Of a stretch of 64,000 nucleotides of DNA, positions 2,885-22,225 are shown in pieces. Source of the DNA: a bacterium (GTDB lineage: Bacteria > Hydrothermota > DG-26 > JAUXAN01); the NCBI GenBank assembly GCA_030619885.1, contig JAUXAN010000001.1, positions 75,474-139,473 on the forward strand, in the 5' to 3' direction. The position numbers and the translations under genes are program-made. Position 1 is the first letter of the stretch. Every line of letters begins with the position of its first letter. Below the pieces are notes generated by a model. It was not told where the DNA came from. It saw nothing but the letters and a program-made list of their open reading frames with translations, and ran no database searches.

Positions 2885-4016
2885 AGTTGAGTGTAGCAGT
2901 TTTTGCCCACTTTTCAGATTGAACTATCTCGTCGAATGTGGGTCTGTCTACCTTTCTATGATTTTTCAATATATGAACGAGCACCTCTGGTATTTCTGTA
3001 AATGGGAGATTCCCGGTTAGAAATTGGTCCACTGCTACCTCGTCCGCAGCGTTTAGAACTGCAGGAACAGTACCACCATCCTCTACAGCACTGTAAGCAA
3101 GACCTAAACATGGGAATCTATCTGAATCGACAGATTTGAATTCTAACTTTTCTACCTCCACTAAATTACAAAATTCGACTCGAGATGGAAATCTCTCTGG
3201 AAATGTGAGCCCATACTGGATTGGCAACCTCATATCAGGCACTGACATTTGTGCCAGAATTGAACCATCTAAAAATTCTACCATCGAATGGATTATAGAC
3301 TGGGGATGTATGACAACTTTTATTTTATCTATCCCAACTCTGAAGAAGAAGTGTGTTTCTATAACTTCGAATCCCTTGTTCATAAGTGTAGCAGAATCTA
3401 CACTTATCTTCTTTCCCATCTTCCATGTAGGGTGTGACACTGCATCCCTTACACTGATAGATTTAAAATCTTCTTTGTGCACATTTATAAACGGACCCCC
3501 GGAAGCAGTCAGAATAATACTTTTTACATCTTCTACATTACGGTTGTGGAGACATTGGTGAACAGCCACGACCTCCGAATCTATCGGAAGAAGTGTGGCA
3601 TTATTTCTGGAAATTTCTTCCATCAATATCTCACCGTAAGCGACTATGGCCTCTTTATTCGCGATAGCTACCTTCTTCCCATTTTTTATCGCTTCAAGAG
3701 TCGGATATATGCCAGAAGAACCAACTATCGCATTCACCACTGTATCAAGTCGACTCTCACCAGCCAGTTCGCAGAGCCCTTCTATGCCGCGTAAAATTTT
3801 TAAATTTGGAAAATCCTTTTTTAACTCTTTATATCCTGTCTCCTCAATTATTACCACGATTTCTGGATTGAATTTCTTTATCTGTTCTCTCAGTTTCTCC
3901 ACATTTCGATTTGCAGTTAAACCATAGACCTTGAATCTATCTTTCAATGATGAAACTACATCGAGGGTCTGAGTACCTATGGAACCTGTAGAACCTAATA
4001 TTGCAATATTCTCCAT
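2868..4016 (-). CDS. dxr: 1-deoxy-D-xylulose 5-phosphate reductoisomerase
   Basis: MENIAILGSTGSIGTQTLDV is the Dxr NADPH-binding motif. The start is trimmed to the Met at 4016; the longer ORF extending to 4067 adds a non-Dxr-like extension. Confidence 0.9.
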   Translation of the reverse strand: MENIAILGSTGSIGTQTLDVVSSLKDRFKVYGLTANRNVEKLREQIKKFNPEIVVIIEETGYKELKKDFPNLKILRGIEGLCELAGESRLDTVVNAIVGSSGIYPTLEAIKNGKKVAIANKEAIVAYGEILMEEISRNNATLLPIDSEVVAVHQCLHNRNVEDVKSIILTASGGPFINVHKEDFKSISVRDAVSHPTWKMGKKISVDSATLMNKGFEVIETHFFFRVGIDKIKVVIHPQSIIHSMVEFLDGSILAQMSVPDMRLPIQYGLTFPERFPSRVEFCNLVEVEKLEFKSVDSDRFPCLGLAYSAVEDGGTVPAVLNAADEVAVDQFLTGNLPFTEIPEVLVHILKNHRKVDRPTFDEIVQSEKWAKTATLNFIRQK

Positions 4017-18570: not shown

Positions 18571-18593
18571 AATCTGTAAAAAAAGACTTGACT
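18571..18593 (+). promoter_or_regulatory. AATCTGTA motif 9 bp upstream of the TTGACT -35 box of the methyltransferase gene
   Basis: Sequence is ggaaatctgtaaaaaaagacttgact, followed by a TATATT-like -10. Confidence 0.4.
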
Positions 18594-18667
18594 CTCAAGT
18601 TATATTATTTATATATTATTAAACGATGTTAAGCGATGCCAGACTTAAACTAATCCTGGGAAGTTAA

Positions 18668-19816
18668 ATGGGCGAAAATATTAAACCGAGAGAAAAGTTA
18701 TTAACCAGTGATAGTCCTAAAATGGTTGGGACAAAGGATTTGTTGGCTATTATTTTGGGGCATGGAACCAAGAAAAAAAATGTATTTGACTTAAGTAAGG
18801 AAGTAATTAGATTTCTAAGAGAAAACATGGGAAAAGAAATTAAAGTAAGTGATTTAACTCAATTTGATGGGATAGGAGAAGCAAAGGCATTACAAATTGT
18901 ATCTGCATTAGAAATTGGCAAGCGTTTTTATAAGGATAAAACGAAAATGCAGATTAAAAAGGTGGGAAATGGGGAATTGATTATAGGCGATTGTCTCGAT
19001 GTAATGCAAACTATGCCTGATAATGAAATAATATTGGCCTTTACTTCCCCACCTTATCTTAATGCTATAAATTATGAAGACCAAATCAAAAAATTGAGCG
19101 GTGAAATAAAGTATTGGGAACGCAAAGAGGTCTCTTATGACTATTATAAAAATTTCCTTATAGACCGTTTCAAAGAACTCTATCGTATTATTAAACCCGG
19201 TGGACACAATGTAGTAAATATTTCACCAATCGCTTGGAATGGAAAACGAGTTGCTTTGCCCTTTCATTTTGTAAATTGGATGGAGAGTATCGGTTGGGTA
19301 TTTAAAGAAGACATTATTTGGGAAAAGGAAATTGCCCGTGATCGCCGAAGCGGTGTTTTAATACAGCATCCATATCCCGGGTATTATTATCCCAGTTTAG
19401 TTGTGGAGTATGTTTTCGTTTTTCAAAAACCTGCAGAAAACAAAGAGCAAAATAATATCTATCATTTCCGAACAAGAAAAGAAAAAGAAGAAAATAAAAT
19501 GGACTTATCCGATTATCAGGGAGAAAAGAGCAAAAATATATGGAGAATCAGACCAGTTGCTCCCCAAGAAAATATACATCCCTGTCCATTTCCTTTAGAG
19601 TTAGCTAAGAGAGTTATACAATACTATTCATACAAGAGTGACACTGTGATTGATATTTTTACAGGAAGTGGCCAAACTAATTTAGCGGCTGAGATTTTAG
19701 GTAGAAAACATCTAGGAATTGATACTCAAGAAAAATATATTGAGTATGCAATAAAAAGAATTATTGATCAAACGAGTCAATTGCGGTTAGGGGATAGATT
19801 TGGAAATCATAGCTAA
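18668..19816 (+). CDS. DNA methyltransferase (beta-class N4-C/N6-A, PF01555-like) with an N-terminal RadC/UPF0758-type HhH domain
   Basis: N-terminal 90 aa: PREKLL..LLAIILGHGTKKKNV..L.....DGIGEAKALQI.SALEIGKR, a RadC N-terminal HhH. Motif IV TSPPY lies before the C-terminal motif I (IDIFTGSGQT), which is the beta-class order. Confidence 0.8.
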   Translation: MGENIKPREKLLTSDSPKMVGTKDLLAIILGHGTKKKNVFDLSKEVIRFLRENMGKEIKVSDLTQFDGIGEAKALQIVSALEIGKRFYKDKTKMQIKKVGNGELIIGDCLDVMQTMPDNEIILAFTSPPYLNAINYEDQIKKLSGEIKYWERKEVSYDYYKNFLIDRFKELYRIIKPGGHNVVNISPIAWNGKRVALPFHFVNWMESIGWVFKEDIIWEKEIARDRRSGVLIQHPYPGYYYPSLVVEYVFVFQKPAENKEQNNIYHFRTRKEKEENKMDLSDYQGEKSKNIWRIRPVAPQENIHPCPFPLELAKRVIQYYSYKSDTVIDIFTGSGQTNLAAEILGRKHLGIDTQEKYIEYAIKRIIDQTSQLRLGDRFGNHS

Positions 19817-20936
19817 ACTTGAGAATTTGAAATTTACACCAACCCTTTTGCCAAAGTTAAAAGAGTTTAATATAGATGATTTTACAAGTGGCAAACTGGC
19901 AAAAGCTGCTGTCTTAAGCTACAAAGATAATCATTTTGGTATAAGTCAATGGGTCTCACCTAAAAGAACTCGTAGTTATCCGTATGGAAGAGTTTACGAC
20001 ACGATGAGCCAACAAATTAGGGTTACGATAATCCCGTTTATCAAAGATGAAGGATTTGATGGAGATAGAGATTTTATACAATGGGATACTGTTTCCTTAA
20101 TGAGTTTGCTTAATGTGTATGTGCTACTTGGTTATTATAGGGGGGCTGAGAAAAATCCAAAATATGAGAATAAAATTACGAATCAGGTTTTAGATTATCA
20201 ATATCTAAAAGAACAATTAGATAGGCTCATCAATTACAAGTCAAGTGCATTACATTGGAATTTATTGCAGTTAGATAATTCTTCAGAAGTAGCTCAAAAG
20301 TGTAAAAAGAGGTATCGAGCTATCTCCAAGCGTTTAGGGGTAAAAATGCACAGTAGTGAAGGAGTTGATGAAAGGATTAAAATATTAAAAAAGGGGGTAA
20401 AAGAATTTAAAGACCTATCCCGTGGTTTAGCAACAAAGGCTCAAAACAGGGAATTTCAAACTACTCAACCCAAAGAAAAGGTAATAGGAAAAAAGGCGAA
20501 AATAATAATTCAAAACTATCTTGGTGGATTATATTATCTCACTGTAGATGAAATAAAAATTAAAAATGATAAGCTGTTCTTGATTGAGAAGAAGCATAGT
20601 AAAGATTCTTTATTTCCGAGTATTGCTGACATAAAAGATGGGATTGTAAGAATGATGTTATTTGTTAATTTAGCAGAGACTAAAATTGCGAATAGGTCAG
20701 TCAACCATTTCTCAGTACTCGGGCTAACATCAGCAAAGTTCAAAGGATTTTGTCATAATATTATGTCCGAGCAAAAAATAAAGAATTGTTTATCCAAAAA
20801 TAGTTTTTCGCCACGACAACAAAAGACTATATTATCTGTTTTTAATGAGGGCAAGTTAAATGACTTTCTGGTCTTCCTTATGGACAGTGACAACCCAAAT
20901 TATCAGAATAAGATATTGAACTCTGTTTTGAAGTAA
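19800..20936 (+). CDS. putative Type II restriction endonuclease partnered with the methyltransferase
   Basis: TTG start overlaps the methyltransferase stop by 17 nt, suggesting translational coupling. No known family recognised. Possible PD-(D/E)xK-like motif (TVD...LFLIEKK). Confidence 0.5.
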   Translation: MEIIAKLENLKFTPTLLPKLKEFNIDDFTSGKLAKAAVLSYKDNHFGISQWVSPKRTRSYPYGRVYDTMSQQIRVTIIPFIKDEGFDGDRDFIQWDTVSLMSLLNVYVLLGYYRGAEKNPKYENKITNQVLDYQYLKEQLDRLINYKSSALHWNLLQLDNSSEVAQKCKKRYRAISKRLGVKMHSSEGVDERIKILKKGVKEFKDLSRGLATKAQNREFQTTQPKEKVIGKKAKIIIQNYLGGLYYLTVDEIKIKNDKLFLIEKKHSKDSLFPSIADIKDGIVRMMLFVNLAETKIANRSVNHFSVLGLTSAKFKGFCHNIMSEQKIKNCLSKNSFSPRQQKTILSVFNEGKLNDFLVFLMDSDNPNYQNKILNSVLK

Positions 20937-21286
20937 CAAGTGATAAGATGTTTTTGCCTTGAAAAGTTGAATACTATTTTGGTTGGCTGATGGGACGGGT
21001 CTCGGAAGTTATTGTATATCAGTGACTTCAGAAATTTTGACCCCTTTCTCCTGTGCTTTATTCTGTGGACTCTGCGGTTAAATTTTTATTGACAAAAATT
21101 TTGCTGTATATATTATGAACTTTGTGAAAGTTAAGCGAACAAGTTTATTTATCCTCTTTATATTTATTGTTCTGTTGGTCTTTGGTATCTTGAGGGGAGA
21201 GTTTAGAGATGTTCTACTTAATGCGATTGTCTTATGTCTTGACTGTATCGGGATCGGATAATGAGAACTGTGATTCAAATAGTAGA

Positions 21287-21412
21287 CACAGATTTACACT
21301 GATGAACCCCACATCAAATTATAGTGCGGGGTGAACACAGATTATAAAAAAATATTCAATCAGTGAACATCTGTGTTAATCTGCGTCTAAAAATACTAAG
21401 TGTCTATCTGTG
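21287..21412 (+). promoter_or_regulatory. cluster of five AATCTG(T/C)G / CACAGATT motif copies in both orientations upstream of the NapH-like gene
   Basis: cacagatt at 21287 and 21336. atctgtgttaatctgcgtc at 21369-21388. atctgtga at 21405. A possible ECF-type GAAC-N15-CGTC promoter also lies here. Confidence 0.4.
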
Positions 21413-21433
21413 ATAATCAGTGTCTGAATTGCA

Positions 21434-22225
21434 ATGATGAGAAGGAGAATATTTCAAATACTTGGAACTATAATTCCTAACTCTTACTTCGGTGCCTTTA
21501 CTGGAAAACTCATCTATCAGGGAAATTTGAAAAGCTTCTGTGTGCCTTCTCTCAACTGTTATGCCTGCCCTCTGGCACTTTTTTCCTGTCCAATTGGCAC
21601 TTTGCAGCATTTCATAATAATAAGGCAGATTCCTTTCTATACGATTGGCATTTTGGGGGTTACAGGTGCTGTAGTAGGGAGAATGGTGTGCGGATGGATA
21701 TGTCCTTTTGGATTTCTGCAGGATATTCTCTATCGCATACGCTCTTTCAAGATTAAAATCCCATCAAAACTCTCCTATCTGAAATATGTCTCTTTGATTT
21801 TCGTAGTCGGAGTAATTGTATTTTTCACCCAAGAATCGTGGTTTTGCAAGTTATGTCCACAGGGGGCACTCCAGGCGGGTATCCCTCTGGTTATAGCAAG
21901 TGAAGAGATTAGGAACCTCATAGGTGGATTTTTTGTTTTGAAACTCTCCATATTGGCTGGGTTTTTATTCCTCTTCGTCATTTCAAAGCGACCTTTTTGC
22001 AGACTATTCTGTCCTTTAGGTGCCATCTACTCCCTGTTCAACCGTATCAGTTTAGTTAGATTGAAATTCGATGAGAACTTATGTACCAGGTGTAATGAAT
22101 GTGTTACAAGTTGTCCTGCTGACATAGTTCCGTATACCTCGCTCAACTCATCTGACTGTATAATGTGCTGGGGATGTATGCGGATATGCCCTGAAAAGGC
22201 AATCAGCTCCGAATTTGAATTCTAA
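21434..22225 (+). CDS. NapH/MauN-like membrane polyferredoxin (4Fe-4S binding)
   Basis: TM helices with CxxCP and G..CGWICP.G motifs, plus C-terminal CTRCNECVTSCP / CIMCWGCMRICP ferredoxin motifs. Confidence 0.75.
   Translation: MMRRRIFQILGTIIPNSYFGAFTGKLIYQGNLKSFCVPSLNCYACPLALFSCPIGTLQHFIIIRQIPFYTIGILGVTGAVVGRMVCGWICPFGFLQDILYRIRSFKIKIPSKLSYLKYVSLIFVVGVIVFFTQESWFCKLCPQGALQAGIPLVIASEEIRNLIGGFFVLKLSILAGFLFLFVISKRPFCRLFCPLGAIYSLFNRISLVRLKFDENLCTRCNECVTSCPADIVPYTSLNSSDCIMCWGCMRICPEKAISSEFEF

Follow-up and report, generated by a model that had tools for sequence, protein, structure and literature searches.

Overlapping genes for a methyltransferase and a likely endonuclease

The window analysed here, a stretch of 64,000 nucleotides from contig JAUXAN010000001.1 of a Hydrothermota bacterium, carries two overlapping genes on the forward strand that form a Type II restriction-modification (R-M) pair: a DNA methyltransferase (MTase) whose N-terminus is a helix-hairpin-helix (HhH) module of the RadC/UPF0758 type, followed by a likely restriction endonuclease (REase). 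An earlier interpretation made from the letters and their open reading frames (ORFs) alone—hereafter, the sequence-only reading—had proposed such a pair, and both ORFs were recovered as described, with ATG and TTG starts, lengths of 382 and 378 amino acids (aa) and an overlap of 17 nt that includes the MTase stop codon. The features of the cassette are:

18588–18617, forward strand: promoter-like TTGACT-18 nt-TATATT, 10/12 matches in a consensus scan, about 50 nt 5′ of the MTase start
18668–19816, forward strand: fused DNA methyltransferase gene, ORF with ATG start, 382 aa; PF20582 and PF01555; PADLOC MTase_II, E 2e-55
18668–18946, forward strand: RadC-type (HhH)2-like N-module, aa 1–93; PREKLL at aa 7–12, GIG hairpin at aa 68–70, long linker helix at aa 71–93
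18947–19813, forward strand: beta-class MTase core, aa 94–382; PF01555; fold neighbours TTHA0409, rotifer N4CMT, M.PvuII and CcrM
19043–19057, forward strand: motif IV TSPPY, aa 126–130
19658–19672, forward strand: motif I FTGSG, aa 331–335
19789–19794, forward strand: Shine-Dalgarno-like AGGGGA within the 3′ end of the MTase gene, 5 nt ahead of the REase TTG
19800–20936, forward strand: predicted Type II restriction endonuclease gene, ORF with TTG start, 378 aa; PADLOC REase_II PDLC03572, E 6.7e-79
20547–20549 and 20586–20594, forward strand: predicted catalytic residues D250 and E263-x-K265, invariant in 44 homologues of 45–86% identity
21063–21077, forward strand: weak terminator-like hairpin from the consensus scan, about 130 nt past the REase stop and before a strong promoter-like site at 21089–21116

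The genes are adjacent, separate and co-inherited, as is characteristic of Type II R-M systems, and the combination of MTase and REase is conserved, overlapping and mobile across phyla, which bears out the classification given in the sequence-only reading. The overlap is also present in relatives of the cassette, and translation of the REase is probably coupled to that of the MTase by way of the overlapping genes. The promoter-like site upstream of the MTase lies in host-specific DNA outside the conserved cassette, and the consensus scan found no comparable second site between the two genes. The G+C content of the cassette region is 0.33–0.35, versus about 0.38–0.43 in the flanks. In its working, the pair resembles an orthodox and fairly ordinary Type IIP R-M system and does not represent a new kind of system or mechanism.

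The likely endonuclease belongs to a large, catalogued family

The second gene product matches the PADLOC model PDLC03572 (REase_II), with aa 5–295 aligned to model positions 10–301 of 371 (E 6.7e-79), and a second PADLOC REase_II model covers aa 246–344; no match was returned from Pfam (E ≤ 1), NCBIfam or the PDB sequences. The earlier statement that this protein has no recognisable family therefore holds for Pfam and NCBIfam but not for PADLOC. The accompanying suggestion of a new restriction-endonuclease family had to be abandoned: the protein has 3287 homologues, all of them unnamed, its relatives occur in at least 596 GTDB species genomes, both bacterial and archaeal, and a PADLOC profile for it already exists. 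The family is thus large and catalogued, although it has neither a Pfam family nor a solved structure. A tblastn search of the REase against plasmids gave no match.

The AlphaFold2 (AF2) model of the REase (mean confidence, pLDDT, 92.8) consists of a beta-rich N-terminal domain (aa 1–131), a helical middle part (aa 133–220) and a C-terminal alpha/beta domain. In the latter, D250 and E263-x-K265 lie on consecutive strands (244–255 and 258–267), which are followed by a helix (275–288) and another strand (291–296). A beta-beta-beta-alpha-beta core carrying D...ExK is the usual arrangement of PD-(D/E)xK enzymes. The TVD...LFLIEKK segment singled out in the sequence-only reading is indeed present, and its D250, E263 and K265 are the invariant residues; their spacing, however, is D-x12-E-x-K and not D-x14. 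Taken with the PADLOC match, these conserved residues and the predicted core fold agree with the previous designation of the downstream ORF as the endonuclease, and the 378-aa protein is likely a PD-(D/E)xK enzyme. Its N-terminal half is strongly conserved as well (SPKRTRSYPY, KDEGxDGDRDFIQWD) and is likely the recognition domain. Homology to the GGCC-cutting enzymes CbeI and HaeIII (PF09556) was considered and rejected: there was no Pfam hit, and hhalign comparison of a 44-sequence profile with CbeI gave a probability of 0.1%.

A RadC-type module precedes a beta-class methyltransferase core

The N-terminus of the MTase matches PF20582 (UPF0758_N) over aa 3–74 (E 6.5e-14; 52.2 bits versus a curated cutoff of 27.1), so that the RadC/UPF0758-type HhH domain named in the sequence-only reading, for which the lack of any such hit would have been fatal, stands. 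Identity of the module to RadC proteins is 40–50%. Residues 60–82 (LTQFDGIGEAKALQIVSALE) match the HhH consensus, with a hairpin of the form L-x-x-F-D-GIG-x-x-K-A-x-x-I, and weak HHH_5 and ComEA matches agree with this assignment. In the AF2 model, residues 7–93 form five helices, the last of which is a long helix entering the first strand of the core. Against the NCBIfam models for the whole protein, TIGR00608 and NF000642, the scores were 59 (cutoff 133.85) and 53.8 (cutoff 180), and in both cases only the N-terminal ~90 model positions were aligned. The RadC JAB domain, PF04002, had no match in the fused MTase; its HxHx[SG]G motif occurs in no ORF of the window, no JAB remnant was found in the 500 bp 3′ of the cassette, and the window holds no other RadC. 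Because it lacks the JAB domain and scores below both whole-protein cutoffs, the fused MTase carries a RadC N-module but is not a RadC protein.

The remainder of the protein is a beta-class MTase core, with a PF01555 (N6_N4_Mtase) match over aa 123–362 (E 1e-37; 130.6 bits versus a gathering cutoff of 26.7). TSPPY precedes FTGSG—the beta-class motif order, as had been noted from the letters—and both motifs are invariant among 45 homologues. By sequence and fold, the nearest solved enzymes are TTHA0409 (which also has TSPPY), the rotifer N4-cytosine MTase (N4CMT) and M.PvuII, followed by CcrM and other enzymes that make N6-methyladenine (m6A). Fold matches to TTHA0409, N4CMT, PvuII and CcrM have E values of 1e-15 to 1e-11 over residues ~100–370 of the AF2 model (pLDDT 74.7), and the alignments to solved MTases are limited to the core (~260–280 columns, about 24% identity). 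The best NCBIfam matches are to CcrM-type models, far under their cutoffs. No other MTase, including any D12-class ORF, was detected within the 64-kb window.

The fusion is conserved among relatives and moves with its cassette

The PF20582–PF01555 architecture is found in 59 of the best 120 homologue clusters, down to ~62% identity, whereas the remaining clusters consist of ~285-aa proteins that share the same core at 70–76% identity, lack the N-module and start exactly at the fusion junction. In an alignment of 45 fused proteins, the PREKLL motif is conserved and L25, L42, L63, A74, Q76, E82, G84 and R86 are invariant within the module, while M94, where translation might also begin, is variable. 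In a neighbour-joining tree built from the core, the fused proteins group into a single clade, with the unfused ones as its sister and a few unfused members nested inside it. Pairwise dN/dS was 0.07–0.14 for the module and 0.06–0.075 for the core. On these comparisons, the fusion is conserved, under purifying selection and of single origin.

Fused cassettes reside in Cloacimonadota, Sumerlaeota, Desulfatirhabdium, Thermodesulfobacteriota, Poriferihabitaceae and Gammaproteobacteria—at least five phyla—in unrelated neighbourhoods, and DNA similarity between cassettes extends from ~30 nt 5′ of the ATG to just past the REase stop. The cassette is horizontally mobile and moves as a unit.

Two further loci touch on the history of the fusion. 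In a Candidatus Staskawiczbacteria metagenome-assembled genome (MAG), 3 nt separate the end of a complete radC gene (223 aa), which encodes both the HhH module and the JAB motif HNHPSG, from a beta-class MTase extended at its N-terminus by a lysine-rich stretch; an REase of the same family comes next (L065:2236–5047). This radC–MTase–REase string is a possible ancestral arrangement of the fusion. An orphan MTase, P0183 (L087:3001–3864), found on at least 23 contigs, is nested in the fused clade and begins at the equivalent of M94; its surroundings contain no REase, no N-module and no remnants of either.

A literature search found no paper describing a UPF0758–methyltransferase fusion. Iyer et al. 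describe the HhH–JAB architecture of RadC and other RadC fusions, and an HhH-only fusion to an R-M MTase is not among them. The fused architecture itself is already in public databases with precomputed Pfam domains.

RadC N-modules, mostly together with JAB, were also observed in single predicted proteins with MTase domains among the best 150 representatives: with D12 in P0255, P0310, P0311 and P0327, with C5 in P0282 and P0338, and with N6_N4 in P0242. These may reflect either a recurrent association or merged calls of adjacent genes. One further match was to P0244 (2693 aa, twelve von Willebrand A [VWA] repeats). With the 95-aa N-module as query, its score of E 2.6e-13 came from 11 short stretches (query aa 13–55) and is probably a sum of weak repeat matches, not homology.

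Partner methyltransferases and host site avoidance point to GGCC

In a census of the MTase partners of the REase family across 80 genomic loci, an MTase stood next to the REase in every case. Such pairs occur, with differing neighbourhoods, in Cloacimonadota, Sumerlaeota, Desulfobacterota, Gammaproteobacteria, archaea and other lineages. The partner is the MTase core of the window, with or without the RadC module; or a more distant beta-class MTase upstream of the REase; or a D12-class MTase directly downstream of the REase, alone or alongside that distant beta-class enzyme; or, at three sponge-symbiont loci, a combination of the fused MTase and a divergent D12 enzyme. The D12 MTase that follows the REase directly in more than 30 loci is 45–51% identical to M.CbeI (PDB 7m6b) of Caldicellulosiruptor bescii, an alpha-class DPPY enzyme that makes N4-methylcytosine (m4C) in GGCC and protects against CbeI, which cuts GG/CC (PMC3425538, PMC8616854). 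DmtB, 57% identical to M.CbeI, has the same specificity (PMC8616854, PMC3425538), and beta-class m4C MTases for GGCC are known in M.SuaI and M.PhoI (PMC3425538, PMC5809426).

Several of the census loci have peculiarities of their own. At the sponge-symbiont loci (L003:7198–8106, L023 about 3049–3942 and L027 about 2954–3979), the order is fused MTase, D12 MTase, REase, and the divergent D12 enzyme has a DPPY motif and is 34–38% identical to M.CbeI. In a Chloroflexi MAG (L026:2918–3991), provided that the ATG start is annotated correctly, a core of the window subtype carries an arginine/lysine-rich N-terminal extension of ~85 aa where the RadC module would be. At two loci (L074:1134–3941 and L085:3–2696), an ORF of ~900 aa, with a VWA domain at aa ~318–417 and a C-terminal REase-family domain of ~360 aa (393–404 bits), is followed directly by an ordinary REase copy and an M.CbeI-like MTase; judged from its domains, this ORF may join a VWA protein to a DNA-recognition module that derives from the REase.

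Site avoidance was assessed in 53 pooled host flanks, all from loci with this system and with the R-M genes masked. The ratios of observed to expected occurrence (O/E) of palindromic tetramers were:

GGCC: 0.38 (301 observed, 791 expected)
CTAG: 0.38
CCGG: 0.96
GCGC: 0.97
CGCG: 0.89

To our knowledge, CTAG is avoided universally; CCGG, GCGC and CGCG share the base composition of GGCC. By individual locus, GGCC was the most depleted palindromic tetramer in 17 of the 53 and among the top three in 37. It occurs 33 times in the window, versus 89 expected, and its O/E is 0.04–0.47 in the window and five hosts of the fused clade (L001, L007, L008, L018 and L019).

Because the REase family is partnered by M.CbeI-like m4C GGCC MTases and its hosts avoid GGCC, we predict, with moderate confidence, that the target is GGCC and the methylated base m4C. 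CbeI (RE_HaeIII) having no homology to the window REase, the window family would therefore be a family of non-homologous isoschizomers. The N4-cytosine methylation that the sequence-only reading had drawn from SPPY gains indirect support: the nearest solved enzymes have SPPY or SPPF and include the m4C enzymes N4CMT and M.PvuII, and the same REase family has M.CbeI-like partners. The SPPY motif alone is not decisive for the base, since M.CbeI has DPPY yet makes m4C. Two other lines of reasoning were dropped. Reading the recognition site from the palindromes of the window alone does not discriminate, as GATC, CTAG, CATG, GGCC and ACGT are all depleted; and an adenine in the site, read from the D12-class partners, was overturned once these proved to be M.CbeI-like and hence m4C-making despite their DPPY.

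A proposed role for the cassette and its alternatives

We consider it reasonably probable that the locus as a whole is a mobile Type IIP operon for GGCC and m4C, with a non-homologous REase and with a RadC module that was acquired once and serves as a DNA clamp. In such a system, the MTase would convert the inner cytosine of GGCC to m4C, shielding host DNA, and the REase would cut unmethylated sites, probably GGCC. The RadC HhH module, without JAB, would have joined the MTase once, in one clade of this R-M family, likely through deletion of the JAB half within a radC–MTase–REase arrangement like that of the Staskawiczbacteria locus. It would now act as a sequence-independent clamp on the DNA backbone that raises the DNA affinity or processivity of a dimeric MTase. 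By analogy, a non-specific DNA tether is the most likely function of the module: it has a canonical HhH hairpin and the weak HHH_5 and ComEA matches, and MTases of the same family at two loci (L026, L065) bear independent lysine/arginine-rich N-terminal extensions. CcrM is a precedent: its C-terminal domain binds DNA non-specifically and holds the non-target strand (PMC6787082, PMC10406627).

Several observations weigh against this overall interpretation. The model confidence of the N-module is only moderate (pLDDT 50–78), and a PDB sequence search with it gave chance-level matches only and no solved structure. Foldseek comparison of the REase model with the PDB returned nothing significant (best E 0.06); its weak top matches—McrC, the R2 endonuclease, DUF4297, AF1548 and the bunyavirus L endonuclease—are mostly PD-(D/E)xK proteins and individually no proof. 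The M.CbeI-like partners are only 45–51% identical to M.CbeI and belong to other REase subfamilies, 44–55% identical to the window REase, a distance at which REase specificity can change. Avoidance of GGCC is common in prokaryotes that have other GGCC systems, and the comparison made here covers flanks with this system only. The window is also depleted in GATC (O/E 0.44), CTAG (0.17), CATG (0.46) and ACGT (0.34), which suggests past exposure to several restriction systems, and the three loci where a divergent D12 MTase joins the fused one (L003, L023, L027) show little GGCC avoidance (O/E 0.6–1.0). Finally, the unfused sister clade functions without the module, so that whatever benefit it brings is not obligatory.

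Some of these points would also fit an N6-adenine MTase, or a site other than GGCC, with SPPY and the M.CbeI-like partners both misleading. Automated names label homologues of the MTase 'adenine-specific', its top NCBIfam matches are CcrM-type, if far below the cutoffs, M.CbeI demonstrates that motif IV does not dictate the base, and the three loci with weak GGCC avoidance are those with the divergent D12 enzyme. We nevertheless regard this as unlikely: the closest solved relatives have SPPY or SPPF, and those of known specificity make m4C; GGCC is, with CTAG, the most depleted tetramer in the flanks of the hosts, a depletion not shared by palindromes of equal composition; and the low GGCC ratios extend to the five fused-clade hosts and the window. 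A different objection concerns the module itself, which might be a non-functional radC remnant left by insertion of the cassette, with the true MTase start at M94. Indeed, M94 stands where the unfused homologues begin, one orphan relative starts with MQIQQVGNG, and adjacency of radC to such a pair is known from L065. Yet about 60 clusters, drawn from at least five phyla and from differing neighbourhoods, share this uninterrupted ORF, M94 is not conserved, the segment has a dN/dS of 0.07–0.14, and neither the downstream DNA nor any window ORF holds a JAB remnant. Given this conservation, we rejected debris of a disrupted radC, which is hardly credible.

For a functional module, the clamp has two competitors. 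The module could direct the MTase to single-stranded (ssDNA), incoming or newly replicated DNA, combining maintenance and DpnA-like protection in one enzyme. Such a role would suit a family that is often DpnII-like, one REase being flanked by MTases of the D12 and the beta class, and it would accord with the recurrence of RadC N-modules on D12, C5 and N6_N4 MTases (best 150 representatives) and with the link of RadC to polyvalent proteins of conjugative elements and to ArdC (Iyer et al.). However, the cassette encodes no MTase besides the fused one, and no other was detected in 64 kb, so that methylation of the duplex host DNA must fall to this enzyme. As a rule, HhH motifs make contact with the backbone of double-stranded DNA; competence or conjugation genes were not seen next to the cassette; and some of the metagenomic RadC–MTase 'fusions' may result from adjacent genes called as one. 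Compared with a preference for ssDNA or repair intermediates, tethering is the simpler explanation, and we give the targeting role a small share of our confidence. The broader notion that the RadC HhH is a general device for targeting DNA on entry or nascent DNA, repeatedly coupled to MTases with or without JAB, strikes us as distinctly improbable; if true, one MTase could get to incoming or new DNA, still unmethylated, before its own REase does, and the fusion would provide a first functional handle on RadC recognition as well as a new way of tuning the race between methylation and restriction. Alternatively, the module could be an autoregulatory DNA-binding domain that represses the MTase–REase operon in place of a C-protein. 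Precedents exist in M.SsoII and M.EcoRII, whose N-terminal helix-turn-helix regions repress their operons; homology marks the module as DNA-binding, no C-protein gene is present in the cassette, whose genes are co-transcribed, and timing control would be useful in a new host. But alignment of the flanking DNA of five fused cassettes and a repeat search revealed no conserved operator: no palindrome or operator-like repeat travels with the cassette, whose conserved DNA starts only ~30 nt 5′ of the ATG, and the promoter-like site lies in host-specific DNA. HhH modules bind DNA without sequence specificity, and unfused sister cassettes have the same layout without any regulator, making autoregulation very unlikely.

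The pair is a candidate source of an m4C methylase for GGCC and of a GGCC cutter that has no relation to HaeIII, from an REase family that spans hundreds of uncultured bacterial and archaeal lineages. The fusion bears on how beta-class methylases acquire DNA affinity, and a RadC module kept under selection, together with the recurrent RadC–methylase proteins, offers a small, testable clue to the function of RadC.

Relation to known systems

The system predicted for the window resembles CbeI/M.CbeI of C. bescii in being a Type II R-M system with a GG/CC target and m4C protection, and more than 30 related loci share the REase-then-MTase order of C. bescii. The proteins differ: CbeI is a 326-aa RE_HaeIII enzyme (PF09556) to which the window REase has no homology, and M.CbeI is an alpha-class MTase with DPPY, in contrast to the beta-class SPPY enzyme of the window. 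Compared by description alone, the archaeal systems SuaI/M.SuaI and PhoI/M.PhoI, which combine a beta-class m4C GGCC MTase with a Type II REase (PMC3425538, PMC5809426), are most likely the closest relatives already named, although no RadC-type N-module is reported in the published descriptions of M.SuaI and M.PhoI.

Among MTases of solved structure, TTHA0409 (2zie), rotifer N4CMT (8s9n) and M.PvuII (1boo) share the catalytic fold, the motif order and a TSPPY or SPPY motif IV with the window enzyme, but at about 24% identity, and none has an N-terminal HhH module. CcrM (6pbd) is likewise a dimeric beta-class MTase and depends, in handling its substrate, on an accessory domain that binds DNA non-specifically (PMC6787082, PMC10406627); this extra domain, however, is C-terminal and of unrelated sequence, and CcrM is an orphan m6A enzyme for GANTC with DPPY. 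With RadC/UPF0758, the window MTase shares its N-terminal ~90 residues, which are homologous to the RadC HhH module, but not the JAB domain (PF04002, HxHxSG). DpnII, in which the D12-class DpnM and the beta-class DpnA accompany R.DpnII, is paralleled by those related loci in which a single REase is accompanied by two MTases, one D12-class and one beta-class. It differs from the window system, which has a single MTase, in target and base (GATC, m6A) and in its REase, which is unrelated (no DpnII Pfam hit).

Surroundings of the cassette

An Rfam scan of the window detected no rRNA or other RNA. Downstream of the R-M pair, the promoter-like site at 21089–21116, the strongest of the region, precedes a 48-aa hydrophobic ORF (21115–21261) with a C-terminal CLDC motif and no Pfam hit. 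The next gene (21434–22225) encodes a 4Fe-4S membrane protein (Fer4_5/Fer4), of which the 48-aa product may be a small membrane partner. Just 5′ of this gene, at 21283–21430, copies of ACACAGAT/ATCTGTGT, both repeated and inverted, are clustered, with arms of up to 22 nt that are 80–89% complementary; the cluster resembles an operator or a regulatory repeat and appears to have no connection with the R-M cassette.

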